This document shows positions 7,538 to 29,113 of a stretch of 64,000 nt of DNA, piece after piece. The notes under the pieces were generated by a model. It searched no databases, was not told where the DNA came from, and saw only the letters and a program-made list of their open reading frames with translations. Source of the stretch: an uncultured Candidatus Binatia bacterium (GTDB lineage Bacteria; Desulfobacterota; Binatia; Bin18); NCBI GenBank assembly GCA_965220195.1, contig CBDCPK010000005.1:1347704-1411703 (forward strand). The letters run 5' to 3'. The position numbers were made by a program, and so were the translations under genes. Positions within the stretch are counted from its first letter, which is position 1, and every line of letters starts with the position of its first letter.

Positions 7538-8389
7538 ATGCAGCTCGTCACCTATGAACGCAACAACCAACGCAGTACGGGCGCGTTGACCGCCGCCGGT
7601 GTTGTCGATCTCCCGAGCGCCTCGCATGGAGCGATCCCCGGAGACATGCTGGACCTGATCCAAGGCGGAGCAGCCGTGCTGGCTCGGGCGCGGGAAGCCA
7701 GCGGTGCCGGCAGTCCGATTCCACTGGCCGATGTCCAGCTCAAAGCCCCTATCGCGAGACCGGGGAAACTCCTCGGGATCGGATTGAACTATGCCGACCA
7801 CGCCGCTGAAGGCGGCAGGAAGAAGCCGGACTATCCGCTGATTTTTGCCAAGACCGTGTCGGCGACAATCGGCCTGGGAGAGGCGATTCTCCTTCCGCCG
7901 GTGAGTCAGATGGTTGATTTTGAGGGCGAGTTGGCGGTCGTGGTCGGCGCCTTTGCCAGAGCGGTTTCAGCCCAGGACGCCCTCGATTACGTTGCCGGTT
8001 ACACGATTTGTAACGATGTGAGCGCGCGCGACTATCAGCGCCGGAGCGGCCATACGCCCGGCAAGTCGTTTGAGACGTTTGCGCCGTTGGGGCCGGTCAT
8101 TGTCACCCGAGATGACATCCCCGATCCCCACGCGTTGGACATTCGGACCGTGGTGAGCGGGCAAGAAATGCAGCACTCCAATACGAAACATCTGATTTTT
8201 CGGATTCCTTATCTGATTGAGTATCTATCGCATATCTTTCCCCTGGAACCGGGCGATGTGATTACCACCGGAACCCCTTCAGGCGTTGGTGCCTATCGCG
8301 AGCCGCCTCGCTTTCTCAAGGATGGCGATACGGTCCGGATTGAAGTGGAGGGGATTGGGGTTTTGGAGAACCCGGTCGTGGCCGGCTGA
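7538..8389 (+). CDS. Fumarylacetoacetate hydrolase (FAH)-family hydratase/isomerase
   Basis: GLNYADHAAE...PLIFAKT...FEGELAVVVG...ICNDVSARDYQ is the classic FAH-domain pattern. An RBS (ggag) lies 6 nt upstream. Confidence 0.85.
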   Translation: MQLVTYERNNQRSTGALTAAGVVDLPSASHGAIPGDMLDLIQGGAAVLARAREASGAGSPIPLADVQLKAPIARPGKLLGIGLNYADHAAEGGRKKPDYPLIFAKTVSATIGLGEAILLPPVSQMVDFEGELAVVVGAFARAVSAQDALDYVAGYTICNDVSARDYQRRSGHTPGKSFETFAPLGPVIVTRDDIPDPHALDIRTVVSGQEMQHSNTKHLIFRIPYLIEYLSHIFPLEPGDVITTGTPSGVGAYREPPRFLKDGDTVRIEVEGIGVLENPVVAG

Positions 8390-8485
8390 AAAGCGTCTCT
8401 TGAGTCTATAGGGTCCTAGGGTCTGTTGGGTCAAGACTCAAGAGACTCAACGATCCAACAGACCCAACCACGCAGAAAGTGGACG

Positions 8486-10293: not shown

Positions 10294-12045
10294 ATGGCGG
10301 AGCAGTCCACTCATACCCCCCAGGATATTCGCTACGAGCCCGATGAGCGTCCCCCACTTGCGCTCACCATCGGGCTTGGGCTCCAGTATGCCGTCCTCGT
10401 CGTTGCCGGCGTCGTGCTGACGCCGGTCATGATGATTAGAATTGCGGGCGGCAGTGAAGCCTATCTGTCCTGGGCGGTGTTCGCCGCGCTCGTGATCAGC
10501 GGGGTCACCTCGGTGATGCAGGCCGTCCGTATCGGGCACGTTGGCGCGGGCTATCTTCTCCTCATGGGCAGTTCGGGCGCCTTTATCGCCGTCTGCGTGT
10601 CAGCCCTGGAGCAGGGTGGGCCGGGACTGATGGCGAGCCTGATTATCATTGCCTCTCTCTTCCAGTTTGTGCTTGCGACCAAGCTGTCGTTGTTCCGGCG
10701 AATCTTCACGCCAACGGTGGCCGGCACCGTGCTGATGCTGATTCCGGTGACCATAGGACCGATCGTCCTGGGCAAGCTGACCGACGTGCCGGAGGGGGTG
10801 TCACCTGTGGCTGCGCCCGTGACTGCTTGTGTGACCCTGGTGGTCACGATTGCGATGTCGCTCGCTCGCTCCAGCACGTGGCGGCTCTGGGCTCCGGTCA
10901 TTGGGATAGGCGCGGGCAGCGCGGTCGGTGGTCTGGGCTTCGGCATCTACGACACCGCGCGTATCCTTGAGGCGGACTGGGTCGGCTTGCCCGCCGTCGC
11001 GTGGCCCGGCCTCGATCTCAGCTTCGGCCCGGCCTTCTGGGCCCTTTTGCCGGCGTTCGTGATGGTGACGCTTATTGGCGCACTCGATACGATTGGCGAC
11101 GGCATTGCGATCCAACGGGCCTCGTGGCGCAGGCCGCGTGCTATCGACTTCCGTGCGATTCAGGGCGCGCTCACTGCCGATGGCCTGGGTAATCTGCTCT
11201 CCGGTTTCGCCGGCACGGTGCCCAACACGACGTATGCGTCGAGTATCTCGGTCGCCGAAATTACCAGAGTGGCGGCTCGTTCTGTTGGCGCGTGTGTGGG
11301 TGTCATCTTCGTCGTGCTGGCCTTCCTGCCGAAATGTGTGGCCGCTGTGGTGGCCATCCCGAGTCAGGTAGTGGCGGCCTACTTCATCGTGCTGATGGCC
11401 ATCCTCTTCATCATGGGCATGCGCATCCTCTTTCAGGACGGTCTCGACTATCGAAAGGGCGTTATCGTGGGCCTCGCGTTCTGGATTGGGAGCGCGTTTC
11501 AGCTTGACTGGATCTTCCCGGAATACTTCCAGGGGCCGTGGAGCGAACTGCTCGGGAACGGGATGACCGTCGGCGGCTTCACCGTGATGTTCCTGACGCT
11601 GTTCGTCGAGCTGACCGCGTCGCGTCGCCAACGCCTCAAGACCCTCTTGAACGTCGATGCCTATTCAGAGGTTGATGCCTTCCTGTCTGGATTTGCTGCC
11701 CATCGGGGCTGGAATCAAGAGATGACGGATCGACTGCGCGCGGTCGGTGAGGAGACGCTCCTCGTCCTTATCCAGCAGAAAGAGAAAGGTTCGACACACG
11801 CCGAGCGCCGCCTGCTGCTCATCGCGCACGGCGATGGCGAGGCGGCTGATCTGGAGTTCATCGCCGCAGCCGACGAGACAAATATCGAAGATCAGATGGC
11901 ACTACTCAGCGAACGGGCTGCGGATACGCCGGTCGAGGAGGAACTCTCCCTGCGGCTGCTGCGACACTACGCCACGTCCGTGCGCCATCAGCAATTCCAC
12001 GACACTGACGTGGTCACAGTCCGCGTGGAGCCGATCGTCTCTTGA
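10294..12045 (+). CDS. NCS2-like permease with C-terminal extension, paralog 2
   Basis: It is about 70% identical by eye to paralog 1 over the whole length. An RBS (gaagggaaggaag) lies upstream. Confidence 0.65.
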   Translation: MAEQSTHTPQDIRYEPDERPPLALTIGLGLQYAVLVVAGVVLTPVMMIRIAGGSEAYLSWAVFAALVISGVTSVMQAVRIGHVGAGYLLLMGSSGAFIAVCVSALEQGGPGLMASLIIIASLFQFVLATKLSLFRRIFTPTVAGTVLMLIPVTIGPIVLGKLTDVPEGVSPVAAPVTACVTLVVTIAMSLARSSTWRLWAPVIGIGAGSAVGGLGFGIYDTARILEADWVGLPAVAWPGLDLSFGPAFWALLPAFVMVTLIGALDTIGDGIAIQRASWRRPRAIDFRAIQGALTADGLGNLLSGFAGTVPNTTYASSISVAEITRVAARSVGACVGVIFVVLAFLPKCVAAVVAIPSQVVAAYFIVLMAILFIMGMRILFQDGLDYRKGVIVGLAFWIGSAFQLDWIFPEYFQGPWSELLGNGMTVGGFTVMFLTLFVELTASRRQRLKTLLNVDAYSEVDAFLSGFAAHRGWNQEMTDRLRAVGEETLLVLIQQKEKGSTHAERRLLLIAHGDGEAADLEFIAAADETNIEDQMALLSERAADTPVEEELSLRLLRHYATSVRHQQFHDTDVVTVRVEPIVS

Positions 12046-14686: not shown

Positions 14687-14804
14687 AAGCGACCCCCCCA
14701 GGACAACTATTATGGCATGGATTGAGGAGATAGGGTAACGAAAACATTCCCTGTGAGGTGCGGGAGCATTATCGGCCGTTCATATGGGACATGAGGAGTG
14801 CGTG

Positions 14805-16571
14805 ATGGGTGTTGACGATTCCGGCCAGCTTGCGAGCGTACGCTACCAGCCCGACGAAAAACCGCCGCCAGCGATTGCGTTCGGTCTCGGTCTACAGTTC
14901 GCCATTCTCATCATTGCCAGAATAGTCGTGATCCCCATGGTTGTGGTCCGGGCCGGCGGTGGGACCGAAGCCTACCTGTCCTGGGCGCTGTTTGCCGCAG
15001 TCTCGATCTGTGGCCTGACCACGGTACTGCAAGCGTTCCGGTTTGGCCGTATTGGTGCGGGCTATGTCGCCGTGATGGGCACCTCCCTGGCTGTCGTAGC
15101 GGTGAGCATCACGGCGGTGGCCGAGGGCGGCCCGGCGTTGCTCGCGACCCTGGTGGTCGTTGCGTCGCTGGTCCCGCTGGCGCTTTCCGCCCGGCTCTCG
15201 CTGTTTCGGCGGCTCCTGACCCCGACCGTTTCGGGGACGGTCATCATGCTGATCCCGGCCACATTGATGCCAACGGTCTTCGGTCTCCTAGAGGAGGTGC
15301 CGGTGGGAACCTCGACTCTGGCCGCTCCGTTGAGTGCCCTCGTGACCGTGTTGATCATTATCGGCATCGCGCTCAGGACAACAGGAGCGCTGCGTCTCTG
15401 GGCACCGGTGATCGGTGTAGCCCTCGGCTCTTTGGCGGCGGGGTGGGTCGGTCTCTTCAACGTGGACGGCATCGCCGAGGCTGCGTGGGTCGGCCTCCCG
15501 GCGGGCGAATGGCCCGGCTTGGCTCTTGATTTCGGACCAATTTTTTGGGCGCTTCTGCCCGCATTCGTACTCGTGGCTCTGATCGAAAGCGTCCAGACGA
15601 TCAGCAATGCCGTCGCCGTACAGCGTGTCTCCTGGCGGCAGCTCCGGGCGGTGGATTTTCGGGCGGTACAGGGTGCGGTGACGGCAGCCGGAATCGGCAA
15701 CCTGCTGTCTGGCTTGGCCGGAACGGTGCCGAATACACTGCTATCGACCGGCGTGGCGGTGGTCGAACTCACCGGGGCGGCGGCCCGCCGCGTCGGGGTT
15801 GCCGTTGGGGTCGTATTCGTCGCCGTCGCCTTCCTTCCCAAGGCGCTCGCCGTGGTCCTGGCGATACCGGGTCCGGTCGTCGCGGCCTATCTCGCCGTCT
15901 TACAGGCGACGCTCTTCGTGGTCGGCATGAAGGTCATCGTTCAGGACGGAATCGACTATCGCAAGGGGTTGGTTGTCGGCCTGTCGTTCTGGGTCGGTGT
16001 CGGTTTTCAGAATGGCGCGATATTCCCCGAGTTTGCTCAGGCATTCGCCGGAGGCCTGCTGCGGAATGGGGTCACGGCCGGCGGTCTCATGGCCATCCTG
16101 ATGACGTTCTTCATGGAGATGACAAAACCGCGCCGTGGCCGGATGGAGACACGGTTCGATCTCTCAGCTCTGCCAAAGATCAGGGAGTTTCTCGTCGCGT
16201 TCGCGTCCCGTGGTGGCTGGGCTGGGACGATGGCCGAGCGCCTTGAGGCTGTCGGCGAGGAGACGTTGCTGACGCTGCTCGGGCAAGACGAGGCCGGCGA
16301 GGAGAAAGAGCAGCGACGGCTCCTCTTGATGGCGCGCAAGGAGGGGGATAGAGCGGTACTCGAGTTCATTGCGGCGACCGGCAAGGACAATCTCCAGGAT
16401 CGGATCGCGCTGCTTGGCGATCAGATGGGCGAAATTCCGATCGAGCGGGACGTTTCGCTTCGGCTGTTGCGACACCTCGCGTCTTCGGTTCGCCACGAGC
16501 AATATCATGACACTGATATCGTGACTGTCCGTGTGGATGCCCCGGAGAAAATTCCCGGCGGGCATGCCTAA
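14805..16571 (+). CDS. NCS2-like permease with C-terminal extension, paralog 3
   Basis: It has the same architecture as paralogs 1 and 2: ...YQPDEKPPPAIAFGLGLQFAIL... and the shared tail ...SSVRHEQYHDTDIVTVRVD. An RBS (gaggag) lies 6 nt before ATG 14805. Confidence 0.65.
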   Translation: MGVDDSGQLASVRYQPDEKPPPAIAFGLGLQFAILIIARIVVIPMVVVRAGGGTEAYLSWALFAAVSICGLTTVLQAFRFGRIGAGYVAVMGTSLAVVAVSITAVAEGGPALLATLVVVASLVPLALSARLSLFRRLLTPTVSGTVIMLIPATLMPTVFGLLEEVPVGTSTLAAPLSALVTVLIIIGIALRTTGALRLWAPVIGVALGSLAAGWVGLFNVDGIAEAAWVGLPAGEWPGLALDFGPIFWALLPAFVLVALIESVQTISNAVAVQRVSWRQLRAVDFRAVQGAVTAAGIGNLLSGLAGTVPNTLLSTGVAVVELTGAAARRVGVAVGVVFVAVAFLPKALAVVLAIPGPVVAAYLAVLQATLFVVGMKVIVQDGIDYRKGLVVGLSFWVGVGFQNGAIFPEFAQAFAGGLLRNGVTAGGLMAILMTFFMEMTKPRRGRMETRFDLSALPKIREFLVAFASRGGWAGTMAERLEAVGEETLLTLLGQDEAGEEKEQRRLLLMARKEGDRAVLEFIAATGKDNLQDRIALLGDQMGEIPIERDVSLRLLRHLASSVRHEQYHDTDIVTVRVDAPEKIPGGHA

Positions 16572-16710: not shown

Positions 16711-18600
16711 TTATTGAGAGAGGGCTTCGAGCACTTCCCAGCGTTCGTAGGCCTGTGCGAGTTCTCGTTCGATGTCGCGCAGGCGCTGTTGCAATGGCGC
16801 GACCTCCGCTCCGCCTCCACGGTAGAGTGCGGCGTCGGACAGTCTGGCGTGTATCTTGGTCTGCTCGTGCTCAAGCGCCTCAATGCGCTGCGGCAGCGCT
16901 TCAAGCTCGCGCTGTTCCTTGTAGCTGAGCTTGCGCTGCCGTTCCTGACGTTCTCGTTGGAGAGGTGCCGCTTTCGGCTCAGGTTTCTGGGGTGCGCTTT
17001 CCGTGGGGAGACGCTGACGCAGCCAGTCATCATAGCCACCAATATATTCGCCAATGTGTCCGTCGCTTTCAAAGGCGAGGGTGCTGGTGACAACATTATT
17101 GAGAAAAGTACGATCATGGCTCACCAAGAGGATTGTACCGGAGTAGGCGAGCAGGAGTTCTTCGAGCAGTTCCAGGGTCTCGGCGTCGAGATCGTTGGTG
17201 GGCTCGTCGAGGACCAGCACATTCGAAGGCTGGGTAAACAGGCGGGCGAGCAACACCCGGTTCCGCTCGCCGCCGGATAAGACACTCACCGGACTCCGGG
17301 CACGGTCCGGCGAAAACAGAAAGTCTTGCAGGTAGCCGATGATATGGCGTTCCTTGCCGCCGAAGGTGACGTGATCGTTTCCCCGTCCCACGATCTCCTG
17401 GACCGTTTTATCAGCATCAAGTGGCGTACGGAGTTGGTCGAAATACGCGACTGCCAGGTTGGTGCCGTGCTGGACACTGCCGTGTTGGGGCATGAGTTCG
17501 CCCAATAAAAGCTGAAGCAATGTCGTTTTTCCTATGCCGTTCGGACCGATGATGCCGATCTTATCACCACGCATAATCACCGTGGAAAAGTCCTTGACAA
17601 CAGGCTGGTCGGCATAGGCGTAGCTGACATCTTGCGCCCGCAGCACGAGTTTTCCGGAGCGCTCCGCTTCCTGGACCTGGAGACGGACCGTGCCCGGTTG
17701 CTCGCGGCGGGCGCTCCGGGTCGCCCGTAACGCCTGAAGGGCTCGCACACGGCCCTCATTCCGAGTCCGTCGGGCTTTAATGCCCTGACGAATCCAGGCC
17801 TCTTCCTGGGCGAGTTTTTTATCGAACTGGGCCCAGTGTTGGGCCTCAGTCTCAAACGCCGCCTGTTTCCGTTCCAGGAAGGTTTCATAGTCGCACGACC
17901 AACTCGTCAAACGTCCCCGGTCGAGTTCCACAATACGGGTGGCAAGATTTTTGAGCAGCATGCGATCGTGGGTCACAAAGACGAGGGTCTTGCCCTGTTG
18001 CAGCAAGAACTCTTCGAGCCAGGTAATAGACTCGACATCGAGATGGTTGGTCGGTTCGTCGAGCAGTAGAATATCGGGATCGCTCACCAAGGCTTCTGCT
18101 AGCAGCACGCGGCGTTTGAGCCCGCCGGAAAGCGTGTTGAATGCGGCACGCTCGTCGAGTTTCAACCGGGTCAGTGTTTGCTCAACCCGCTGATGGACCA
18201 GCCAGCCGCCGTTGCTATCGACAGTCTGTTGCAGCTGCTCCAACTGCCGGAGCAGTTTTGGGTCATTCGTTTGGCTCACTTGAGCACTGACGGTGTGATA
18301 GGCCGCCAGAGTGTCGCCCAGCCGGCCTAAGCCCTGGGTCACGCGCTGTAATACCGTCCCAGGCAGAGACAGAGGAATGTCCTGAGGGAGGAATCTGGCG
18401 CGTGTATCCTTAGCGCGGACGAGCTGACCGGCATCGGGCCGGACCTCACCCTGAATCACTTTCATCAGGGTAGACTTCCCCGCCCCGTTGCGGCCCAGGA
18501 TGCCAACCCGCTCCCCCGCTTCGAGTTGCAAACTCACCCCGTCCAGCAACGGCGGCTCTCCAAAGCTGACCCGGACATCCTGAAGGCTCAGTACTGCCAT
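16711..18600 (-). CDS. ABC-F family ATPase (Uup/EttA-like, tandem ABC domains)
   Basis: It has two Walker A motifs (GRNGAGKST, GPNGIGKTT) and two LSGGE signatures, and no TM domain. The C-terminal coiled-coil region is typical of Uup. Confidence 0.85.
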   Translation of the reverse strand: MAVLSLQDVRVSFGEPPLLDGVSLQLEAGERVGILGRNGAGKSTLMKVIQGEVRPDAGQLVRAKDTRARFLPQDIPLSLPGTVLQRVTQGLGRLGDTLAAYHTVSAQVSQTNDPKLLRQLEQLQQTVDSNGGWLVHQRVEQTLTRLKLDERAAFNTLSGGLKRRVLLAEALVSDPDILLLDEPTNHLDVESITWLEEFLLQQGKTLVFVTHDRMLLKNLATRIVELDRGRLTSWSCDYETFLERKQAAFETEAQHWAQFDKKLAQEEAWIRQGIKARRTRNEGRVRALQALRATRSARREQPGTVRLQVQEAERSGKLVLRAQDVSYAYADQPVVKDFSTVIMRGDKIGIIGPNGIGKTTLLQLLLGELMPQHGSVQHGTNLAVAYFDQLRTPLDADKTVQEIVGRGNDHVTFGGKERHIIGYLQDFLFSPDRARSPVSVLSGGERNRVLLARLFTQPSNVLVLDEPTNDLDAETLELLEELLLAYSGTILLVSHDRTFLNNVVTSTLAFESDGHIGEYIGGYDDWLRQRLPTESAPQKPEPKAAPLQRERQERQRKLSYKEQRELEALPQRIEALEHEQTKIHARLSDAALYRGGGAEVAPLQQRLRDIERELAQAYERWEVLEALSQ

Positions 18601-18777
18601 GTCAGGAGGTTTCTCATATTCGAGGGCGGAAGGCTATTGCCGTCATGCGCTATGGATGCTCGTGCGAGTGTTGTAAAATGTCCACTTCGACACAATGACA
18701 ATAGCCTCAGGCTGGCCGCTTTATCTCTAGCAGGTTTTCGAGTAAACAAAGCGGGCAACGGTGGAAGGAAGGCCATT

Positions 18778-19572
18778 ATGGGACAACTGGAAAACAAAGT
18801 CGCTCTCGTTACCGGCTCCGGGCGGGGCCAGGGGCTTGTGGCTGCGCAACGCTTTGCCTCAGAAGGGGCGAAGATCGTGATTAACGACCTTGACGCGGAG
18901 TCTGTCGAGGCTGCGGTTGCCGCCGTCAAAAACGCCGGAGGCGAAGCGGTGGGGGCCGTCGGTGATGTGTCCAAGGCTGCGGACGTGCAAGCCGTTCTGC
19001 AAACCGCCCAGGACGCCTGCGGCGGGTTTGACATCCTGTATAACAACGCCGGGATCGGCTACTCGGCGACGCAACGCTTCGGCATTGCCATGAGCGATAT
19101 CGTCAACTGTACCGAGGATGACTGGCGGCGCATCATGGGCATTAATGTCGGTGGGATTTTCCTGTTTTGTAAATACGGGATTCCCCAGCTGATCGAACGC
19201 GGAGGCGGGGTCATTATCAACACCGCCTCCATTGCGGCTCTGCGCGGAGCTCAAGACGCCCACGCCTACACGGCCAGTAAGGGCGCGATTCTGGCCCTGA
19301 CCCGAGCGATTGCGGTCACCTATGGCCCCAAAGGCATCCGCGCCAACACGCTCTGCCCCGGCGTGATCGACACCGAAATGATTCACGACACCTTAATCAG
19401 CGAGAAGAATATCAGCGATCTCCTTGCTCGGAACACCCCGCTCCAGCGCAATGGCACGCCGGAAGACGTGGCCGACGTAGCGTTATTCCTGGCGAGCGAC
19501 CAGTCTCGTTTCGTGACCGGCGAGGCGTTTGCCGTCGATGGCGGAATTATCCAGCATATTGGATTGGCCTGA
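18778..19572 (+). CDS. SDR-family oxidoreductase
   Basis: It has TGSGRGQG (the Rossmann TGxxxGxG motif), NNAG and YxxxK (YTASK). Confidence 0.8.
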   Translation: MGQLENKVALVTGSGRGQGLVAAQRFASEGAKIVINDLDAESVEAAVAAVKNAGGEAVGAVGDVSKAADVQAVLQTAQDACGGFDILYNNAGIGYSATQRFGIAMSDIVNCTEDDWRRIMGINVGGIFLFCKYGIPQLIERGGGVIINTASIAALRGAQDAHAYTASKGAILALTRAIAVTYGPKGIRANTLCPGVIDTEMIHDTLISEKNISDLLARNTPLQRNGTPEDVADVALFLASDQSRFVTGEAFAVDGGIIQHIGLA

Positions 19573-19597
19573 GCAGACCGCTCAAAAAGGGGAGCCC

Positions 19598-20545
19598 ATG
19601 GATCAGGAACAACTCGTCAAGGTATTCACGAGCGCGGTACTAGCGCGACGCTTTGAGGCGAAAATCGTCGAGCTGGCTATGGCCGGCGAACTGCCTCCAT
19701 CGCTGCACGTTGGCGCCGGCCAGGAGGTGGCGCAGATCGCTGCTATCGAAGCCCTACGACCCGACGACTACATCTTGTACGGCCATCGTGGCGTAGCGTA
19801 TATGGTCGCCCGGGGCGTGAGTCTGGCCGACATGCTGGCCGATATGGCGGGCAAGGAGGGCGCGACCAGTCGTGGCAAGGGCGGGGTGATGCACGTCGTG
19901 GATGTGCCCAAAGGTATTCTGGGTGAGAGTGGGACCTTGGGTGGCAGCTTCGTGGTCTCGGTTGGAGTGGGCATGGCGCTCAAGCGCAAGCAGCCGGACA
20001 CAGTGGTAACGTATTTCTTTGGGGATGGGACGGCGAACCGGGGCCCGTTCCACGAGGCGCTCAACTGGGCTGCGGTTCAGAAACTGCCCTGCGTCTATTT
20101 TTGTGAGAATAACGGCTTCGCGATTTCCATGCCGACCAGCCGCTCGACCGCGGTCGAGAATATCGCGGACCGGGCCGCGGGTTATAACGTCCCTGGCGTG
20201 GTGGTTGACGGGAGTGATCCGGTGGCGGTGTACGAAGTCATGGAACAGGCTGCGGCGCGGGCGCGGGCCGGCCATGGTCCGACGCTGATTGAAGCCAAAG
20301 TGACGCGGCTGCAAGGGCATTATGTCGCCGACCAGCAGGAATACCGGACCGACCGCAACGCCGTGGCGGAAAAAGACCCTCTGCCGAAGCTGCAACAGAC
20401 CCTGTGCGACCGGGACATCCTGACGCAGGCCGACGTGGACGACATACAGGCCGACGCCGACCGGCAGATTGAAGCGGCCGTAGCAGCCATGCGCGCGGCT
20501 CCGTTGCTCGCACCGGAAGTCGCATTGCAGGACGTTTATGCGTAG
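19598..20545 (+). CDS. 2-oxoacid (pyruvate/acetoin) dehydrogenase E1 component, alpha subunit (TPP-binding)
   Basis: It has the TPP motif GDGTANRGPFHEALNWAA...NNGFAIS. An RBS (aaaaggggag) lies upstream, and the E1 beta and E2 genes follow. Confidence 0.85.
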   Translation: MDQEQLVKVFTSAVLARRFEAKIVELAMAGELPPSLHVGAGQEVAQIAAIEALRPDDYILYGHRGVAYMVARGVSLADMLADMAGKEGATSRGKGGVMHVVDVPKGILGESGTLGGSFVVSVGVGMALKRKQPDTVVTYFFGDGTANRGPFHEALNWAAVQKLPCVYFCENNGFAISMPTSRSTAVENIADRAAGYNVPGVVVDGSDPVAVYEVMEQAAARARAGHGPTLIEAKVTRLQGHYVADQQEYRTDRNAVAEKDPLPKLQQTLCDRDILTQADVDDIQADADRQIEAAVAAMRAAPLLAPEVALQDVYA

Positions 20546-20580
20546 GAAGGGAATTGGGGATTAGGGGCTGGGGGTTGGGG
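20545..20580 (+). repeat. G-tract repeat (ggaagggaattggggattaggggctgggggttgggg), a potential G-quadruplex former
   Basis: Four or more runs of G3-5 are separated by 2-4 nt loops. It lies in the E1alpha-4HB intergenic region. Its inverted partner is at 20962-20991. Confidence 0.7.
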
Positions 20581-20588
20581 AGGAAGGT

Positions 20589-21023
20589 ATGGAGAAGAAC
20601 TCGAAGATCAGCGGTTTTCGTGATCTCCGGGTATGGCAGGGAGGAATGGACTTGGTGGAACAAATCTATCGGTTGACACGGGAGTTCCCCAAACATGAGA
20701 TGTATGGCTTGGCGAGCCAAATGCAGTGGGCCGCTGTTTCGGTTCCCTCAAATATCGCGGAAGGTCATACGCGTGATTCGCGGAAAGAATACCTCCGTCA
20801 TCTCTCGGTCGCTCGGGCATCTTTGGCTGAACTGCAGACACAACTGGAGATCGCTAAACGTCTCCAGTACTGCTCCTCTGAAGGCTACGCTCGTCTCCTT
20901 GACCAGTCTGACCTATTAGCCAGGCAACTCTCGGCATTACGAACTACCCTGCTCAAAGGAGCCAACCCCCAATCCCCAATCCCTAACCCCCTCAGGAGTG
21001 TTTATGCCAACACGGACCTATAG
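20589..21023 (+). CDS. Four-helix-bundle protein (TIGR02436-like)
   Basis: MEKNSKISGFRDLRVWQ...AVSVPSNIAEGHTRDSRKEYLRHLSVARASLAELQTQLEIA is a textbook member of the 4HB family. Confidence 0.8.
   Translation: MEKNSKISGFRDLRVWQGGMDLVEQIYRLTREFPKHEMYGLASQMQWAAVSVPSNIAEGHTRDSRKEYLRHLSVARASLAELQTQLEIAKRLQYCSSEGYARLLDQSDLLARQLSALRTTLLKGANPQSPIPNPLRSVYANTDL
20962..20991 (+). repeat. C-tract repeat (ccaacccccaatccccaatccctaaccccc), the inverted partner of the 20545-20580 G-tract
   Basis: Its reverse complement is gggggttagggattggggattgggggttgg, which is similar to the upstream copy. It encodes NPQSPIPNP at the 4HB C-terminus. Confidence 0.7.
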
Positions 21024-21975
21024 TCAGGCGATTAATGATGCGCTTGCCGAAGAAATGCGGCGCGATGAAAACGTGATTCTGTACGGTCAGGACGTTGCGG
21101 TCTGGGGTGGGATTTTCAAAGTCACCGACGGGCTGCTTGAAAAGTTCGGTCCGGATCGCGTGTTCGATACGCCGATCTCCGAGAGTGTGATGGTCGGCGC
21201 CGGTGTGGGCGCGGCCTCGATGGGCCTGCGGCCGGTGGTGGAACTCCAGTTTGCCGACTTCGTCATCACCGCGGGTGATGAAATTTTCTTTAAGGCCGGT
21301 ATGTGGCGCTATATGCACGGTGGGGCGCATACGATTCCGCTGGTGGTGCGCGCTCCCTCGGGCGGCTCGGGCTTTGGACCCGAGCATTCAGCCTGTCCCG
21401 AAGCCTTTATCATGCACGCGCCCGGCCTGCTGTGCGCCGTGCCCTCAACGCCGGCAGACGCCAAGGCTCTGCTCAAGCAGGCGATTCGACTGGATAACCC
21501 GGTCATCTATTTTGAGCATAAACTACTGTATCAAATGCGGGGCGAGGTACCGGACGGAGAGGTGCTGACTCCCTTTGGCAAAGCAGTCGTCCGACGCGAG
21601 GGCGAGGCCGTGACGATTGTGGCCTGGCAGGACATGTTGCGCCGTTCGCTCGCAGCCGCGGAGCGACTGAGCCAGGAAGGCATCGAGGTAGAGATCGTCG
21701 ATCCGCGTACCCTGAATCCGTTTGACCGCGAAACCATTATCGAGTCGGTCAAAAAGACCGGAGCCTGTATTGTGGTGGAAGAGGCCTATCGTACACTTGG
21801 GGTTGGGGCGGAGATCGGGGCGCTGCTCCTGGAAGAGGTCCTCCCCTATCTGGACAAACCCTTCAAGCGCTTGGCTATTCCCGATGTGCCGATTCCGACC
21901 AGCCAGCATCTGGTCGATGCTATCGTTCCTTCGGCAGACGATATTTATCGGGCGGTCAAAGAACTCGCTGACTGA
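21004..21975 (+). CDS. 2-oxoacid dehydrogenase E1 component, beta subunit (transketolase-like)
   Basis: MPTRTYSQAINDALAEEM...VILYGQDV...LQFADF is the E1-beta pyrimidine-binding domain. An RBS (aggag) lies 5 nt before ATG 21004. Confidence 0.85.
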   Translation: MPTRTYSQAINDALAEEMRRDENVILYGQDVAVWGGIFKVTDGLLEKFGPDRVFDTPISESVMVGAGVGAASMGLRPVVELQFADFVITAGDEIFFKAGMWRYMHGGAHTIPLVVRAPSGGSGFGPEHSACPEAFIMHAPGLLCAVPSTPADAKALLKQAIRLDNPVIYFEHKLLYQMRGEVPDGEVLTPFGKAVVRREGEAVTIVAWQDMLRRSLAAAERLSQEGIEVEIVDPRTLNPFDRETIIESVKKTGACIVVEEAYRTLGVGAEIGALLLEEVLPYLDKPFKRLAIPDVPIPTSQHLVDAIVPSADDIYRAVKELAD

Positions 21976-22003
21976 GGCTGGTGTGCGAAATACCAAAGTC
22001 GTG

Positions 22004-23650
22004 ATGCCCAAACTCGGCCAGGCCATGACCGAGGGAGTGGTCGTGCGATGGCATCGCAAAAACGGCGGGCGCGTCACTGCCGGCGAGCTGCTCGTCACGG
22101 TGGAGACGGACAAGGCCACATATGATCTTGAGGCAACCGCGAGTGGGACGCTCCACATTGTGGTTCAAGAAGGCGAAGAGGTCCCGATTCATACCGTCAT
22201 TGGCGAGATTGGTGACGCGCCAGTCCAGGCGGATACCACCACCGCTCTGCCACCTGCCGAACCGGTCGTCCAACAGCGAATAGCGTCACGCCCAAGGCGC
22301 GTCCTCGCCTCACCTAAAGCTAAACGACTGGCCGCTGAACGCGGCATTGATCTTTCAACCCTGACGCCGTCATCTGCGGATGGGGTGATTTCCGCGGCTG
22401 ATGTAGAGCAGGCCGCGGAGAACGCAGTTGCCCAGCAGCAGTCTGCGACGGCCACTCGACCTGGTTCCGCTCCAACCCGGACCGAGCGCGAACGCCGCCC
22501 TCTGACCGGCATTCGGAAGGCCTCCGCCCGCCGGGTCCAGGCCGCCTGGCAGACCATTCCGCATATCGTCCAGATGATCGAGGTCGATGCCGGCGCGCTG
22601 CAAACGGTCCGGGAACGACTCAAAGCGGATATCTCCGGGCTGACGCTCAACGACCTGATTTTACACGCGGCGGCGCGGGTGCTGGCCGGACTGCCCGACC
22701 TCAACGCGACGGTCGAAAACGAAGAGCTTATTCTCTATGACGGGGTTGATATCGGCTTTGCCGTTGACTCGCCGCGCGGTCTGCTGGTCCCGGTTATCCG
22801 CGGGGCGGACGGTCTGTCTATAGCACAGCTTGCGAAGGACAGGCAGCGACTGGTTGAAGTCGCTCGGGCGGGGCAGTTGCAGCCGGCCGATATGGGTCAG
22901 GCCAGCCTGACCGTCTCGAACCTTGGCATGTTCGGCATCCGGGCCGGCACCCCGGTCATCAATCTGGGTGAACCCATCCTCGTCTTTGTGGGCGCGGTTG
23001 AAGAGCGGCCGGTCGTGCGGAATGGGCAGATTATCGCCCGTCCCATGCTGACGCTCAGCATTGCTTATGACCACCGGGTAGCGGACGGGGTAGCGGCATC
23101 CCGTTTGAGTCAGGGTCTGAAAGAGGCGCTGGAAAATCTAGGATCAGAATCCTTCTCGGAAGTCTCCAACTCCCAACCCCTAACCCCCAACCCCCAAGAA
23201 GCCCTGGACAAACGGGAAGTCCGCTCAATGTCTGCTGGCGAGCGATATGCCGTTCGGGTGCGGAGCCACGCCCATGTCTGGAGCCTTGACGAGCCGGCGA
23301 GCGACGGCGGAGAGGATACCGGCCCGGACCCGGTAACCGCTTTTCTCGGCGCTCTTCTCTCCTGCATGACGATTGCCTTCAAAGCGGCTGCCCGGCGTCG
23401 CAAGATTTCAATTGAACGGATTGAGGGACGTGCCAAAGCATCGCTGAAGGGCCAGGTGAAAGACATAACTTTAACCCTGGCTGTGTGGAGTTCGGCTTCG
23501 GAGCAAGATGCGCAGATTCTCCTCGAACGGGCCAAGCGCGGCTGTTATGTAAGCGGAATGCTGAGGCCGGATATCCACCTTACGGTGGAGTTGGTCAGGC
23601 ACGCGCCGGACGCCGCCTCTTCCCCTCGCCCCCTTGGGGGAGAGGGCTAG
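22004..23650 (+). CDS. Dihydrolipoamide acyltransferase (E2: lipoyl, peripheral subunit-binding and catalytic domains) fused in frame to a C-terminal OsmC/Ohr-like domain
   Basis: The lipoyl domain is ...VTVETDKATYDLEA. The peripheral subunit-binding domain is SPKAKRLAAERGIDLSTL. The catalytic domain ends at ...YDHRVADG...LENL. The frame then continues through a Pro/Asn linker (SNSQPLTPNPQEA, encoded by a C-tract repeat). It runs on into an OsmC-like domain (DPVTAFLGALLSCMTIAFKAAARRRKI...ERAKRGCYVSGML). Confidence 0.7.
   Translation: MPKLGQAMTEGVVVRWHRKNGGRVTAGELLVTVETDKATYDLEATASGTLHIVVQEGEEVPIHTVIGEIGDAPVQADTTTALPPAEPVVQQRIASRPRRVLASPKAKRLAAERGIDLSTLTPSSADGVISAADVEQAAENAVAQQQSATATRPGSAPTRTERERRPLTGIRKASARRVQAAWQTIPHIVQMIEVDAGALQTVRERLKADISGLTLNDLILHAAARVLAGLPDLNATVENEELILYDGVDIGFAVDSPRGLLVPVIRGADGLSIAQLAKDRQRLVEVARAGQLQPADMGQASLTVSNLGMFGIRAGTPVINLGEPILVFVGAVEERPVVRNGQIIARPMLTLSIAYDHRVADGVAASRLSQGLKEALENLGSESFSEVSNSQPLTPNPQEALDKREVRSMSAGERYAVRVRSHAHVWSLDEPASDGGEDTGPDPVTAFLGALLSCMTIAFKAAARRRKISIERIEGRAKASLKGQVKDITLTLAVWSSASEQDAQILLERAKRGCYVSGMLRPDIHLTVELVRHAPDAASSPRPLGGEG
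23172..23196 (+). repeat. C-tract repeat (cccaacccctaacccccaacccccaa)
   Basis: It belongs to the same CCCCAA/CCCTAA family as 20962-20991 and lies in the E2-OsmC linker. A G-tract partner (gggggagagggctagggtgaggggg) lies at 23636-23660 and spans the stop codon. Confidence 0.65.
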
Positions 23651-23696
23651 GGTGAGGGGGTCTCGGTAGCAACGCTATTGAATAACCCGGACCTGC

Positions 23697-24632
23697 CTAT
23701 TCATGCAGAGCGGTCTTCAGCGCCGCGGCCGCCTTTTCCAATGCCTGCCCGGCCGGCTCAACGACCTTGGCCATACCCATAAAGCCGTGGATGAGCCCCT
23801 CAAAACAAACGTATTCAACCGCTACGCCTGCCTCACGCAGCCTGGCCGCGTACGCGGCTCCCTCGTCCCGCAGGGGATCGTATTCTGCGGTGGCAATAAA
23901 GGCCGGCGGCAGGGAGCGGCATTGATCGGTCGAGGCGTACAGGGGGGAGGCCAGCGGGTTGTGTCCATCCGCTTCGCTGGCGAGATAATGGTCCCAGAAC
24001 CACCCCATCATCTCGGTTGTCAGAAAATAGCCGTCCGCATTTTCGGTGTGCGACGGCAGGTCAACCGCGTGCGCCGTGACCGGGTATAGGAGGAGTTGAT
24101 AGGCGAGAGCCGGCAGGCCGCTCTCTTGCGCCTTGAGGGTCACTGCGGCTGCCAGGTTGGCACCGGCACTTTCACCGCCCACAGCCAGTCGAGAGACATC
24201 CCCGTTCAGGGCGGCCGCGTTGAACGCGACCCACCGCGTCGCGGCGTAGCAGTCATTGACCGCTGCCGGAAATTTGTCTTCTGGCGCGAGCCGGTAGTCT
24301 GCGGAGACCACCACGCAGTTAGCAAGATTAGTCAAGGCACGACAGGATGCATCCACCGTGTTCAGACTGCCAACCACCCAGCCACCCCCGTGAAAATAGA
24401 CCAATATGGGAAACGGGCCGTCTCCGGCCGGGGTGTAAATACGGATCGGCTGTTTGCCGGCCACGCCGGGTATCAGCCGGTCTTCGACCGTGCCGACCGG
24501 CTCGGGGTCAGCCGTTACGCCTCGCGCGGCTTCCATGGCGGTCCGCGCTTCCTGGGGCGAAAGATGATGTAGGGGTGGACCGGCGGCGGCCATTTGTTCG
24601 AGGGCTTTTGCGACCTGGGGATGGAGTGGCAT
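23697..24632 (-). CDS. Alpha/beta hydrolase (HSL-family esterase/lipase)
   Basis: It has the oxyanion-hole HGGGW motif (VYFHGGGWVVGS) and the nucleophile motif GESAGANL (GxSxG). Confidence 0.8.
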   Translation of the reverse strand: MPLHPQVAKALEQMAAAGPPLHHLSPQEARTAMEAARGVTADPEPVGTVEDRLIPGVAGKQPIRIYTPAGDGPFPILVYFHGGGWVVGSLNTVDASCRALTNLANCVVVSADYRLAPEDKFPAAVNDCYAATRWVAFNAAALNGDVSRLAVGGESAGANLAAAVTLKAQESGLPALAYQLLLYPVTAHAVDLPSHTENADGYFLTTEMMGWFWDHYLASEADGHNPLASPLYASTDQCRSLPPAFIATAEYDPLRDEGAAYAARLREAGVAVEYVCFEGLIHGFMGMAKVVEPAGQALEKAAAALKTALHE

Positions 24633-24644
24633 GGTGTTTTCCTT

Positions 24645-25442
24645 TTAGACGAGTGCACATGAGGTCAGAAAATTTTGGATAAGCCGGACGCATTCGATTG
24701 GCTTTTCCAGTGGCGGGCAATTACCGCATTGCGGAATGATTTCTACGCGGGCGTTGGGCAGAGCGTGCTGATACAAGGCACTGCATTCCAGCGGCACGAT
24801 CCGGTCGTCCTGTCCCCAGATAATAAGGGTTGGCAGATGCACTCGGCCTAACAGCCCAGGCAGGCTGGGGCTGAACATATACGGCTTCCAACAGTAGCGG
24901 ACGAGAGTTTCCTGGTTGCGCGTTTGTATGTCGCGCTCCTCTTTGGACGGCTTGCGCTGGAACAGTTCGGCATACTCGGCAACCTGCTGTGGGTCGAAAT
25001 ACGCCAGTTGTCTGGTGCCCTCCTGTCCGTGCAGAAAGACATCGGTAATTTCGCCGTCCCTCGGCTGGATACCGGCCGCGTCAATCAGAATGAGATGATC
25101 GAATGTCCTGGGCGACATAACCGCCATTTCTGCTGCCAGCCAGCCGCCGATGAAGTGACCCGCCAGGGTAACCTGAGATAGCTCCAGCGCATCCAATAGC
25201 CACAGACTGAAGCGCGTCAGGTCCGTAAAGGATTCGAGCCAGGGGGGACGTTCGGACTGCCCAAAGCCCGGATAGGTTGGCGCATAGACAGTAAAGGACT
25301 CGGCCAACTGTTCGTGATATTGCCGCCAGCCCAGACTGCCTTCCGCGCCGTGCAGCATGACGAGCGGCTTGCCCCGGCCGCCTTTCAGATAATGAATTGT
25401 GGCGCCGCCGACTTCGATAGTATGTTCTGCATGTTCTGGCAT
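24645..25442 (-). CDS. Alpha/beta hydrolase-fold protein whose nucleophile-elbow Ser is replaced by Phe (a likely pseudo-enzyme or recently inactivated gene)
   Basis: It has the MhpC/BphD-like fold (LVMLHGAEGS...). The nucleophile elbow reads GHFIGG and is encoded by GGT CAC TTC ATC GGC GGC. The expected GHSxGG would need TCC at the third codon. Confidence 0.65.
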   Translation of the reverse strand: MPEHAEHTIEVGGATIHYLKGGRGKPLVMLHGAEGSLGWRQYHEQLAESFTVYAPTYPGFGQSERPPWLESFTDLTRFSLWLLDALELSQVTLAGHFIGGWLAAEMAVMSPRTFDHLILIDAAGIQPRDGEITDVFLHGQEGTRQLAYFDPQQVAEYAELFQRKPSKEERDIQTRNQETLVRYCWKPYMFSPSLPGLLGRVHLPTLIIWGQDDRIVPLECSALYQHALPNARVEIIPQCGNCPPLEKPIECVRLIQNFLTSCALV

Positions 25443-25471
25443 GGTTGTTGTCTCTGTTCCATGGAGATTGT

Positions 25472-26692
25472 TTATGGAGCGCGTTCAAAGGGTCCGGGCA
25501 GTCCCAGCTCTCTTCCCATTTCCCGAACTGCCGGGAGCACGTCATGCTCCATGAGGGCTAAACAGCGCATCGTGTCTTCATGTCCGATGGTGCCGTCATT
25601 CGTCCAGACGCCAAGAATGCCGGGGCGGACAACGCTGAGGACTTCGCGTAATTTCCTGACTACCGTGTCCGGGTTGCCCACAATAACCCGGTTGCTTTCT
25701 ACGACCTTTTCCCAGCCCGCGGAATCAACGCCGCCGTAGAGGGGGTCAGGCCGGAGTGAATAGCGCCGGTACTGGTCGACAATGCGCTTGGCCCCTTCGC
25801 GTGAGTTATAGCCCGGCGGGGCCATGAAGTCGCCCGGCAGCGGCACGCGACCGACACCGGCGTTTCCGATCAGAAAACCTTTACCGACCTCATACGCTTT
25901 TTCGTCTGTGTCCTGGACATGGACGCGGACGAGATAGCCAAAGTTTTGCGGACCCGGCTCATAGCCCACCCGCTTGGCGGCCTCGGTATAAATTGCGGTC
26001 AGGTCCAGGGTCACCTGGGGATCGGTTTCTAAATAAATGTAGGGATAGTGGTGCTGGGCACACCAGATCAGCGTCTCCGGGCTGCCGATACCGGGAATCC
26101 AAACGGGAGGATGCGGCTGTTGGAGCGGTCGTTCAAACGGGTTGACGACCCGGAACTGATAATGCTTACCCTCCCAGCGCCACGGCCCTGGGGTGGTCCA
26201 GGTTTTGATAATCAAGTCGTGCGCTTCTTCAAAACGCTCGCGGTTATACACCGGGTTGGTGTTCGTTGCCCAGCTCTCAATACCCGTTCCCCGTACAAAG
26301 CCCGATACGAGTCGGCCCCGCGAGATCATATCGATCTCCGCCAGCTCCTCGGCCAGTCGTAGCGGGTTATCGAAAATCGGGAGCGGATTGCCCAGCAGGA
26401 CGATTTTCGCCCGCTTGGTAGTGCGGGCCAGGATGGCGGCTTCGAGATTCATGGCCGCCCCCATACACGTCGGGGTATTATGATGCTCATTCAGCATCAG
26501 ACCGTCGAAGCCAACCTCTTCTGAATACTCGTACTCGTCAAGGTAGGTATTATACAGGTCCGCTCCCAGGCTTGGATTGAAATGGGCATTCGGAAACGTC
26601 AGGCGGACCGCGCTGCGGAAACTCTGGCGCACATCTTCTTCCGAGTAGTCTACATAGGCCCGTTCTGTAAAACGCATGAGAAACATACCCAT
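25472..26692 (-). CDS. LLM-class flavin-dependent oxidoreductase (luciferase-like monooxygenase)
   Basis: It has the TIM-barrel LLM signature (...GFDGLMLNEHH...). The start is assigned to ATG 26692 (MGMFLMRF), which lies after the RBS aaaggagggg. Confidence 0.75.
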   Translation of the reverse strand: MGMFLMRFTERAYVDYSEEDVRQSFRSAVRLTFPNAHFNPSLGADLYNTYLDEYEYSEEVGFDGLMLNEHHNTPTCMGAAMNLEAAILARTTKRAKIVLLGNPLPIFDNPLRLAEELAEIDMISRGRLVSGFVRGTGIESWATNTNPVYNRERFEEAHDLIIKTWTTPGPWRWEGKHYQFRVVNPFERPLQQPHPPVWIPGIGSPETLIWCAQHHYPYIYLETDPQVTLDLTAIYTEAAKRVGYEPGPQNFGYLVRVHVQDTDEKAYEVGKGFLIGNAGVGRVPLPGDFMAPPGYNSREGAKRIVDQYRRYSLRPDPLYGGVDSAGWEKVVESNRVIVGNPDTVVRKLREVLSVVRPGILGVWTNDGTIGHEDTMRCLALMEHDVLPAVREMGRELGLPGPFERAP

Positions 26693-26813
26693 GCCCCTCC
26701 TTTCTTTCCCGGACACTATCCTGTCTGGTATCACCGGATCAAGAGAAAGGGGCGGACGCAGCTTGACTCCTGTCAGCAGGCCGCATACGGATAGCTGGAG
26801 AGGAGGGCTGAGT

Positions 26814-27694: not shown

Positions 27695-28360
27695 TCAACG
27701 TAAAGTATTCTTTTCGACCCTGGCGACACCGATCATCGAGTCGCGGCTGACCAGCGCGGTGAGTTCTTCTTCACTCATGCTCTCGGTTCCGGCGGGCCGT
27801 TCGGGCAGGACCATATAGCGGATTTCTGCGCTACTGTCCCAGACCTTCACTGCGGTGGATTCGTCGAGTTCCAGACCAAAGTCCCGCAGCACACCACGCG
27901 GGTCCACCACCGAACGCGAGCGATAGGCCGCATCCTTGAACCAGGCCGGCGGTAGCCCCAGAACCGGCCACGGATAGCAGGAGCACAGAGTGCAGACGAC
28001 CAGGTTATGGGTGTCCGGGGTGTTCTCAACCACTACCATATGTTCGCCCTGGAGGCCGCTGAAGCCGAGTTCCGCAATGGCGGAGGTGGCGTCTTCGAGC
28101 AGGCGCTCTTTATACGCCGGATCGACCCAGGCTCGGGCCACAACCTTGGCCCCGTTGATCGGCCCGAGGTCGCTCTCATACGTTTCGACCAGCTTGTCGA
28201 GCGTTTCCGAAGAGACCAGACCCTTGGCTACCAGTAAGGACTCCAGGGCCCGCACCCGTTGCTCCAGAGCCGCGGTCTGTTCGGGAGAGGTGTGTTTCTC
28301 CAGGTAGGGATTCGGCGGGGCATCGTGGGCGCTATGGCCGTGAGTATGATCGCTACTCAT
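27695..28360 (-). CDS. nthA: Nitrile hydratase alpha subunit (cobalt type)
   Basis: The metal-binding motif is [10 protein letters not shown]. Thr and Tyr at these positions mark Co-type enzymes, whereas Fe-type enzymes have Ser and Thr. An RBS (aaggag) lies upstream. Confidence 0.9.
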
Positions 28361-28371
28361 GACTCTTCTCC

Positions 28372-29031
28372 TTAGGCGGGGTCAAGATAATCTTCCCACA
28401 GGTCGATATACAGATTGTCTGTTGCGGCGGCGTCCGGGCCCCAGAGTTCCTGGGCGGTAAAGCAGACCGAATACAGTGGCTGTGGCTGTTCGCCCTGGCC
28501 GTGAGCATTGGTATCCGGGTACACAAAGGTGCCGTAGACTTGGGCTATCGTGCCATTTTTCCCCCGGACATAACGGGGCAGCCGGGTGTGCCCGGTTGGA
28601 TTCAGGTTACGGGATCGAACTTGGTCGCCTACCGAGAAACGCGGGGTCAGGCGGCCTTCTGTCCGATGGCAGGGCGCCCCGCCTTGGACAACTGCCGGGA
28701 CCGCTTCCGGTGGAAGCGGTCCTTCCGCTCGCTTACCGGTCTCCTGGGCGACTCCGGTTGCTAATTCCTCTGGGGTGAGAACACCTTTTTCCACGGCCAG
28801 GGTTTCCAGTGCGGCCAGCCAGTGCTCATAATAGGTCGAGGAGAGATAATGGGCGGGGTCCATGCGTTCGATTGCATGCCGGAAGGCGTCGAGCGTGTCG
28901 AGTTGGCCCATGCCGAGCATGGTCATGGCAAACACACGCTTTTCCCACTCGGCATGAAAGATCGGCTCGTTCTCTTCCGGTTTGACCGGGCCGTAGCAGG
29001 TCATACCACCCATATCATGCACACCATTCAT
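28372..29031 (-). CDS. nthB: Nitrile hydratase beta subunit
   Basis: [10 protein letters not shown]... is the canonical beta-subunit start. The start is set at ATG 29031 after the RBS gaggag. The beta-then-alpha order matches Co-type operons. Confidence 0.85.
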
Positions 29032-29113
29032 ACGTTTCTCCTCGGGCTCAATGCGTGGGCACCAGCCTAACACCCGGTCTGGTGAGGGTCAATCAATTGA
29101 GCGCGGTGGAAAC

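Follow-up and report, generated by a model that had tools for sequence, protein, structure and literature searches.

Peroxidases of the Ohr/OsmC family, such as Ohr of Xylella fastidiosa (which works with a lipoylated E2 and Lpd) and OsmC of E. coli, have a protein-bound dihydrolipoyl group as their known reductant, and their disulfides get reduced in trans by such lipoyl groups (PMC5384416). In Trichomonas vaginalis, a hydrogenosomal OsmC without the canonical Arg/Glu has been reported to reduce peroxides when coupled to the lipoylated H protein and the L protein of the glycine cleavage system, an activity that was not reproduced with free lipoamide (PMC5384416). In M. tuberculosis, the core of an E2 acyltransferase serves as an antioxidant electron hub: Lpd, DlaT (E2p), AhpD, and AhpC form a peroxynitrite reductase/peroxidase in which the reduced lipoate of DlaT powers the peroxidase pathway and is charged either by E1 with its ketoacid or by E3 with NADH (PMC12995895). 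Here we describe a gene in which the E2 acyltransferase of a 2-oxoacid dehydrogenase complex and an OsmC-like domain are parts of a single polypeptide (E2::OsmC). It lies in contig CBDCPK010000005.1 of an uncultured Candidatus Binatia bacterium, within a stretch of 64,000 nucleotides (nt), which we call the window.

The fused domain belongs to the same Pfam family and fold as Ohr and OsmC, and its Cys454 and Cys514 align to Cys61 and Cys125 of Xylella Ohr and stand 60 residues apart. Unlike the trans-acting Ohr and OsmC, it is covalently attached to the lipoyl-bearing E2 and carries Val in place of the catalytic Glu. The acceptors in M. tuberculosis are two separate proteins whose folds are unrelated, the thioredoxin-like adaptor AhpD and the peroxiredoxin AhpC, whereas the window has a single fused OsmC-fold domain and no evident adaptor. 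The Trichomonas components are likewise separate, and the lipoyl carrier there is the H protein, not E2. The differences from these systems are the covalent fusion to E2, an OsmC domain of a third group of the family without the canonical Glu, and the lack of an adjacent E3 gene. No published description of an E2-OsmC fusion was found in the full-text literature searched, the coverage of which is incomplete.

A plus-strand frame is open without interruption from 21722 to 23650 and runs from E2 through OsmC up to the TAG at 23648-23650, as seen by analysis of the open reading frames (ORFs). No stop codon separates ...LKEALENL, at the end of E2, from the OsmC domain. Counting residues from the ATG at 22004, as we do throughout, the Pfam domains follow each other in the order Biotin_lipoyl (1-69), E3_binding (100-135), 2-oxoacid_dh (161-379), and OsmC (436-529). 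A first-pass annotation of this DNA had claimed that E2 runs into an OsmC-like domain without a stop codon, that a C-tract encodes the linker between them, and that a G-tract covers the stop codon. All three statements are borne out: the ORF is continuous with four Pfam domains, the linker peptide SNSQPLTPNPQEA derives from the C-tract at 23166-23197, and a G-rich tract spans the TAG. The parts of the gene are as follows.

21983..23650, plus strand: E2::OsmC fusion gene, a single ORF with four Pfam domains; protein cluster P0024 is 100% identical, at 555 residues (aa)
22004..22210, plus strand: lipoyl domain (Pfam Biotin_lipoyl, E 7.5e-14)
22301..22408, plus strand: peripheral-subunit (E1/E3) binding domain, PSBD (Pfam E3_binding, E 2.5e-10)
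22484..23140, plus strand: E2 acyltransferase catalytic domain (Pfam 2-oxoacid_dh, E 2.3e-66)
23141..23209, plus strand: inter-domain linker, aa 380-402, holding a heptanucleotide array
23166-23197, plus strand: linker array (CCAACCC)x4.6 (Tandem Repeats Finder, TRF, score 50), encoding NSQPLTPNPQ
23210..23602, plus strand: OsmC-like domain, aa 403-533 (Pfam OsmC, PF02566, aa 436-529)
23618..23660, plus strand: C-terminal tail SSPRPLGGEG and stop codon, inside a GC-rich hairpin element (from comparison with relatives)

The E2 part displays the features expected of this subunit, namely a lipoylatable lysine, a PSBD, the histidine of the DHRxxDG motif, and adjoining genes for E1 alpha and E1 beta. 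The lipoyl-lysine is K37 (codon 22112-22114) within VETDKA, and the catalytic histidine is His357 (codon 23072-23074) within YDHRVADG. In an alignment of 47 fusions, E34, T35, D36, K37, and A38 are invariant around the former, as are D356, H357, and R358 around the latter. This E2 is the subunit that forms the core of a 2-oxoacid dehydrogenase complex of the PDH/acetoin type. No equivalog model assigns the complex any further, the best E2 models reaching 222-248 bits against cutoffs of 379-449 and E1 alpha reaching 257 bits with TIGR03182, under the equivalog cutoff. Assignment to pyruvate dehydrogenase (PDH), 2-oxoglutarate dehydrogenase (OGDH), branched-chain 2-oxoacid dehydrogenase (BCKDH), or acetoin dehydrogenase was rejected on these scores. 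The catalytic domain aligns with the solved E2p cores 1b5s and 1eaa until about 8 residues short of their C-termini, and in place of the canonical C-terminal 'knob' segment of about 8 residues it has a stretch of low conservation leading into the linker.

The OsmC-like domain is significant when taken alone (E 1.6e-13; 51.4-54 bits against a gathering cutoff of 27.5), and the same fused ORF occurs in more than 120 database clusters, which puts the association far beyond chance. The hallmark of the OsmC/Ohr family is a pair of conserved cysteines about 60 residues apart, one on helix 1 and the other on helix 2 (PMC5384416). Here the pair consists of Cys454 (23363-23365) and Cys514 (23543-23545), which match the peroxidatic (Cp) and resolving (Cr) cysteines of Xylella Ohr in a pairwise alignment and are present in 108/108 and 106/107 sequences, respectively, of an alignment of 108 OsmC domains. 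Over these domains and the 47 fusions, D429-E-P, G435-G, P441-x-P443, A510, and R512 are strongly conserved too. An AlphaFold2 (AF2) model of the domain, with a mean predicted local distance difference test (pLDDT) value of 73, has the topology beta3-alpha-beta2-alpha-beta. All of its 48 best Foldseek matches in the PDB are OsmC/Ohr proteins with probability 1.0, including dihydrolipoamide-bound structures of OhrB (6ebd and 6ebg) and of Ohr; the TM-scores are only 0.44-0.60, for a query that is the monomer model of a swapped dimer. The closest solved sequences are 9wo1, a 400-aa 'Osmotically inducible protein C', and the uncharacterised OsmC-like structures 3cje and 2opl (profile E 3.8e-11 and 1.4e-09). 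The entry 9wo1, which is not named as an E2, has about 260 residues ahead of its OsmC match, and such sequences show that the branch of the family that holds the fused domain often occurs as a C-terminal module.

The same domain architecture is widespread among relatives. A search with the full protein returned 2211 matches, the best 120 of which are 527-591 aa long with 58-100% identity, and all of these 120 contain the E2 domains together with PF02566 with the single exception of P0097, from a frameshifted contig. A scan of one genome per species located 21 loci, nearly all in Candidatus Binatia. E2 and OsmC share a frame in 19/21 of them by tblastn, and translation gives continuous ORFs; the best locus, L005, is 97% identical across the linker and OsmC region. 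In two more distant loci of 58% identity (L028 and L029), a module of a short-chain dehydrogenase/reductase (SDR), E1 alpha, E1 beta, and E2::OsmC is kept while the flanking genes differ. An exhaustive OsmC-domain search over 1.84 billion cluster representatives, followed by local mapping of the domains, yielded about 20 full-length clusters at 50% identity with lipoyl, catalytic, and C-terminal OsmC domains, plus further truncated ones. The PSBD is detectable in most of these full-length clusters, and OsmC identity among fusion clusters falls to 29-31%. They extend to haloarchaea (Halovalidus salilacus, Halomarina ordinaria, Halolamina sp., and Halorubrum sp.), with lipoyl-PSBD-catalytic-OsmC proteins represented by P0185, P0203, P0190/P0301, and P0197/P0303. 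In a neighbor-joining tree without support values, the fused OsmC domains, haloarchaeal ones included, fall in one half of the sampled diversity and are interleaved with short or stand-alone sequences. One such stand-alone relative was verified: P0017, from a Chloroflexi metagenome-assembled genome, has 51% identity and does not adjoin an E2 gene.

E2::OsmC is a genuine, evolutionarily conserved gene fusion. The first-pass annotation had left the choice between a genuine E2-peroxiredoxin-like fusion and an anomaly or read-through, with orthologue comparison named in advance as the means of refuting the latter. The in-frame loci, the best 120 homologues, and the purifying selection on OsmC described below support the former; the comparison found a conserved domain architecture in relatives, and the anomaly or read-through reading is therefore removed. 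The OsmC part is invisible in the RefSeq annotations looked up, where the fusions are called just '2-oxo acid dehydrogenase subunit E2', and some carry the JGI label 'E2 component/uncharacterized OsmC-like protein'. Two loci among the exceptions, L021 and L001, are degraded, the E1 genes and the greater part of E2 being gone. The end of the catalytic domain and OsmC are retained in both (7295-8440 in L021, 7860-8630 in L001); the L001 remnant is an open frame of 216 codons with 91% identity, and that of L021 is interrupted.

The ratio of nonsynonymous to synonymous substitution rates (dN/dS), computed by the Nei-Gojobori method between the window and eight relatives, was compared across the regions of the gene.

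OsmC domain: dN/dS 0.17-0.35
Catalytic domain: dN/dS 0.08-0.23
Lipoyl domain: dN/dS 0.06-0.21
E2-OsmC linker: dN/dS 0.2-1.4
Two classical hinges: dN/dS 0.39-2.7

By these ratios, both the OsmC and the E2 parts are under purifying selection, and the ratios of the linker fall within or close to those of the other hinges. Synonymous sites are saturated relative to L024 (and relative to L025 in most regions), with the fusion still kept.

The best explanation in our view, to which we give a probability of about 60%, is that the conserved E2::OsmC fusion works as a lipoyl-fed thiol redox module. Its presence in relatives and haloarchaea suggests that the lipoyl arm of the E2 itself feeds electrons to a built-in peroxide-detoxifying module, and the OsmC domain likely serves as a lipoyl-dependent thiol peroxidase or disulfide reductase that forms part of the E2 scaffold. 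The dihydrolipoyl arm that swings within the same E2 assembly would reduce the Cys454-Cys514 disulfide (or a sulfenate), and the OsmC domain would in turn reduce its own substrate, an organic hydroperoxide or related oxidant. Recharging of the arm would come from E1-catalysed oxidative decarboxylation of the substrate of the complex, or from a genome-encoded E3 with NADH. Lipoyl-dependent reduction of Ohr/OsmC was earlier established with separate proteins, and a conserved fusion provides independent genomic ("Rosetta stone") support for it while extending the lipoyl-OsmC partnership to a third OsmC group. It also offers a compact system for studying a lipoyl arm shared by acyl transfer and redox defence, a task for which M. 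tuberculosis has the separate AhpD and AhpC.

Several observations weigh against this reading. The position of the canonical catalytic Glu of Ohr is occupied by Val444 ('dpv' versus 'npe'), as it is in 65/108 relatives, so that no Glu stands 10 residues ahead of Cp; the Arg of the beta1-beta2 loop is unaligned. Scores are 18.4-21.9 bits with the Ohr model TIGR03561 (cutoff 88.85) and 19.8-23.2 bits with the OsmC model TIGR03562 (cutoff 85.8), the lower value of each being that of the full-length protein, and the best OsmC-type match in NCBIfam, the OsmC-related selenoprotein model NF041052, reaches 53.6-58.4 bits against a cutoff of 95. Because of the Val and of scores so far below these three cutoffs, the fused domain is placed as a superfamily member outside both characterised subfamilies, and it fits the third OsmC group, which is poorly characterised and includes members that lacked peroxidase activity in vitro (PMC5384416). 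Both AF2 monomer models (pLDDT 73 and 67) have only moderate quality and show no confident domain docking; in the full-length model, OsmC is not confidently placed relative to the catalytic domain, and residues 382-440 have pLDDT values below 50. P0179 (member HXW82812.1, Candidatus Binataceae) and P0236, each about 245 aa long, combine a lipoyl-like domain with an OsmC domain of the fused-domain subfamily and have the lipoyl lysine replaced (VETGEAH and VTTDGVT); lacking this lysine, neither was used as Rosetta-stone evidence. Finally, a scan of the larger ORFs from 7.5 to 41 kb of the window revealed no E3 gene of the Pyr_redox type, and none adjoins the distant fusions L028 and L029.

Some of these points lend weight to the rival that survives best, which we consider rather unlikely: the fusion is real and OsmC is not a peroxidase, acting instead as a dimerisation or scaffold element at the two-fold of the core, as a redox switch of E2, or as a non-peroxide reductase for a disulfide or electrophile from the neighboring catabolic enzymes. 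It would accommodate Val444, the subfamily hidden Markov models that all stay under threshold, the Lys-less lipoyl-like/OsmC proteins, and the state of the third OsmC group, whose members either lack characterisation or give inconsistent assay results (PMC5384416). There is a structural side to it as well. In canonical E2 cores, the last C-terminal residues insert into the neighboring trimer, and the E2 C-termini meet at the inter-trimer two-fold (PMC12995895); in the window, the knob segment has given way to the stretch leading into the linker, and the extension begins exactly where E2 trimers normally have the segment that holds them together as 24- or 60-mers. OsmC/Ohr proteins are intertwined, obligate dimers, and therefore the domain may occupy the trimer-trimer two-fold or change it. 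A purely structural role, however, would not need both cysteines to be invariant (106-108 of 108), and the motifs DEP, GG, and P-x-P, all conserved in the surroundings of the Cp helix, suggest that an active site has been preserved. The simplest reading is still thiol chemistry that is coupled to a dithiol cofactor, and a lipoyl-fed redox module remains the interpretation that we favor.

With no adjoining E3, the E2 would either use a shared cellular E3, or, more speculatively, OsmC would give a route of arm re-oxidation that is independent of E3. A bolder form of the lipoyl-fed module, which we regard as doubtful, builds on the second option: E1-reduced arms would be re-oxidised by the fused OsmC at the expense of an organic hydroperoxide or a similar oxidant, making the SDR-E1-E2::OsmC module a self-contained '2-oxoacid (or acetoin-type substrate):hydroperoxide oxidoreductase', with OsmC dimers possibly formed across the trimer-trimer two-fold and reshaping the core.

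The origin of the linker bears on whether the fusion might be a recent accident. The window contains three arrays of the CCAACCC/TTGGGGG kind and no further ones; two of them flank a four-helix-bundle (4HB) gene located between E1 alpha and E1 beta.

20546..20997, plus strand: polymorphic 4HB cassette between E1 alpha and E1 beta, with inverted flanking arrays (TRF; inverted repeat I1)
20554-20580, left flank of the cassette: array (TTGGGGG)x3.9 (TRF)
20589-21023, plus strand: four-helix-bundle gene (23S rRNA intervening-sequence protein; Pfam 23S_rRNA_IVP, PF05635, E 5e-37)
20962-20991, right flank of the cassette: array (CCAACCC)x4.3 (TRF)

The suggestion of the first-pass annotation that the linker C-tract belongs to the repeat family flanking the 4HB gene agrees with the shared heptamer unit CCAACCC and with 87-94% identity over 16-23 nt between the linker array and the right flank. 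The cassette, which is not part of the E2::OsmC fusion, varies among near-identical Binatia genomes: it is full in 7 loci, cut down by an internal deletion to about 100 nt in L010 (5713-5860), and absent from the nearest relative L005 (5819-5848), where the C-array alone remains. Its behavior in this comparison is that of a small element, mobile or excisable, within an operon. The linker array is present with or without the cassette, and OsmC was therefore not brought in with it.

The linker itself is hypervariable, with PNPQ-type arrays of differing length among relatives. In L012 (~8003-8060) it has gained 21 nt, three extra units, with the frame kept, and in L026 (~4170-4200) it has lost 14 nt, two units, with the frame lost. 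Members of the L013 group have a non-repetitive 'ESQKPEA.QSQE' linker of equal length, and L025, L002, and the haloarchaea have unrelated linker sequences without a C-tract. The array is likely a tolerated, slippage-prone spacer in a disordered linker that is unlikely to matter for function, and the fusion may have arisen long ago from an intergenic spacer that held repeats. In principle, the array could also switch the fusion on and off, only three-unit changes preserving it; the one case on record, in a contig of 5.6x coverage, is insufficient to claim this. A variant unit, CTAACCC, puts a TAA in the +1 frame at 23181-23183, within CCCTAACCC, so that a +1 slip in the linker would end E2 about 4 residues further on; no programmed-frameshift motif is recognisable at this site.

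Against this background, it is very improbable that OsmC was recently inserted behind E2 by the heptamer element of the 4HB gene and is read through accidentally and without function. The common unit CCAACCC, the rarity of such arrays in the window, and the demonstrable polymorphism of the cassette would fit such a capture, which had also been proposed in the first-pass annotation. As a recent event it is unsupported: L005-L007, at 91-99% aa identity, carry the identical fusion and array and have no cassette, and a C-tract is missing altogether from distant fusions (the L013 type, L025, L002, and those of haloarchaea). Moreover, the fusion is retained despite synonymous saturation relative to L024, the OsmC dN/dS is that of a constrained domain (0.17-0.35), and no G-array partner stands beside OsmC, the 3' G-tract being part of a separate local hairpin.

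The weakest rival, an assembly or sequencing artefact in which a stop or frameshift hidden in the C-tract makes E2 and OsmC two genes, can draw on the slippage-prone array and on two split cases in low-coverage contigs (the 14-nt deletion in L026/P0097, an Illumina contig of 5.6x, which frameshifts E2 away from OsmC, and one extra C directly ahead of the OsmC domain in L027/P0002, a long-read contig of 8x) and is rejected as practically negligible, given the in-frame fusion in 19 of the 21 assemblies, which are independent of each other and in many cases complete chromosomes, the more than 120 protein clusters from differing samples and platforms, array length changes that otherwise stay in frame, an internal Met that is not conserved, and a window protein identical to P0024, which stands for a cluster of 33 member sequences.

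Two candidate starts were considered for the fusion gene, GTG at 21983 (555 aa) and ATG at 22004 (548 aa). The GTG, which lies 8 nt after the E1 beta stop codon, is probably the true start because a GAGG Shine-Dalgarno sequence precedes it by 5 nt and the gene call of the identical P0024 gives 555 aa. The extension ahead of the ATG is also kept as protein in relatives, with the consensus xQNTxVL followed by MPKLGQ. The internal Met that had been put forward as a possible start of the OsmC domain is indeed present (Met409, at 23228), and a separate OsmC start there is unlikely because this Met is not conserved, relatives having T, V, or A at the position. The OsmC domain of the fusions opens with the motif REVR, and the stand-alone homologue P0017 opens with MADREVR, 4 residues ahead of the conserved REVR; an internal start at Met409 was thus rejected.

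At the 3' end, the window has a hairpin element composed of CCCCTCGCCCCC-TTG-GGGGGAGAGGG, followed by CTAGGGTGAGGGGG. The ORF ends with ...HAPDAA-TAG in L012 and with ...HAPDSA-TAG in L013, where the GC hairpin TTCCCTCGCCCCC-AAG-GGGGAGAGGGG comes after the stop codon; that of L012 is similar and more diverged. In the window, L001, L005-L008, and L014, this stop is lost and ten more codons, (S/N)SP(R/L)P(L/Q)GGEG, lead to a TAG inside the element, and L009 reads into the element as well, with a longer tail. The tail SSPRPLGGEG is therefore, on this comparison of relatives, a recent stop-loss read-through into the GC hairpin that is unlikely to matter for function. The fold energy of the hairpin is -37.9 kcal/mol with a z-score of -1.06, not exceptional for its composition, and it is not followed by the T-run of a terminator. 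The 3' G-tract was also considered as an inverted partner of the linker C-tract, and this was rejected: a repeat search of the region gave no such pair, and the G-tract pairs locally with a C-run just ahead and sits after the stop codon in relatives.

The fusion gene is the last of a four-gene module with an inserted cassette, in the order SDR, E1 alpha, (4HB), E1 beta, and E2::OsmC, after which an esterase, a hydrolase, and a monooxygenase follow on the other strand.

18526..19572 (ORF maximum), plus strand: SDR-family oxidoreductase, first gene of the module (Pfam adh_short_C2, E 9.7e-63)
19529..20545, plus strand: E1 alpha of a thiamine pyrophosphate (TPP)-dependent 2-oxoacid/acetoin-type dehydrogenase (Pfam E1_dh, E 8e-70)
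20998..21975, plus strand: E1 beta (Pfam Transket_pyr and Transketolase_C; NF006667, 323.7 bits against a cutoff of 321)
23697-24632, minus strand: LipP1-type esterase (Pfam, NCBIfam)
24645-25442, minus strand: alpha/beta hydrolase (Pfam, NCBIfam)
25472-26734, minus strand: luciferase-like monooxygenase (Pfam, NCBIfam)

The E1 alpha and E1 beta genes lie directly upstream of E2::OsmC in all complete loci, and the SDR gene keeps its syntenic position throughout the Binatia loci as well as in the distant L028 and L029. The NCBIfam matches of the SDR are generic, with meso-2,3-butanediol dehydrogenase at 217 bits and below its cutoff. The maximal ORFs of SDR and E1 alpha overlap and are 20-85 codons longer than their orthologues (261-264 aa and 316 aa); the true starts of both are probably internal, with that of SDR near 18.78 kb. 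The convergent trio (23697..26734) is found downstream in most close Binatia loci and not in L028/L029. Further upstream lie three paralogous transporter genes of the Xan_ur_permease family (8426-10234, 10294-12045, and 14784-16571), and beyond the trio come the alpha and beta genes of a nitrile hydratase, which are read from the minus strand (27695-29073).

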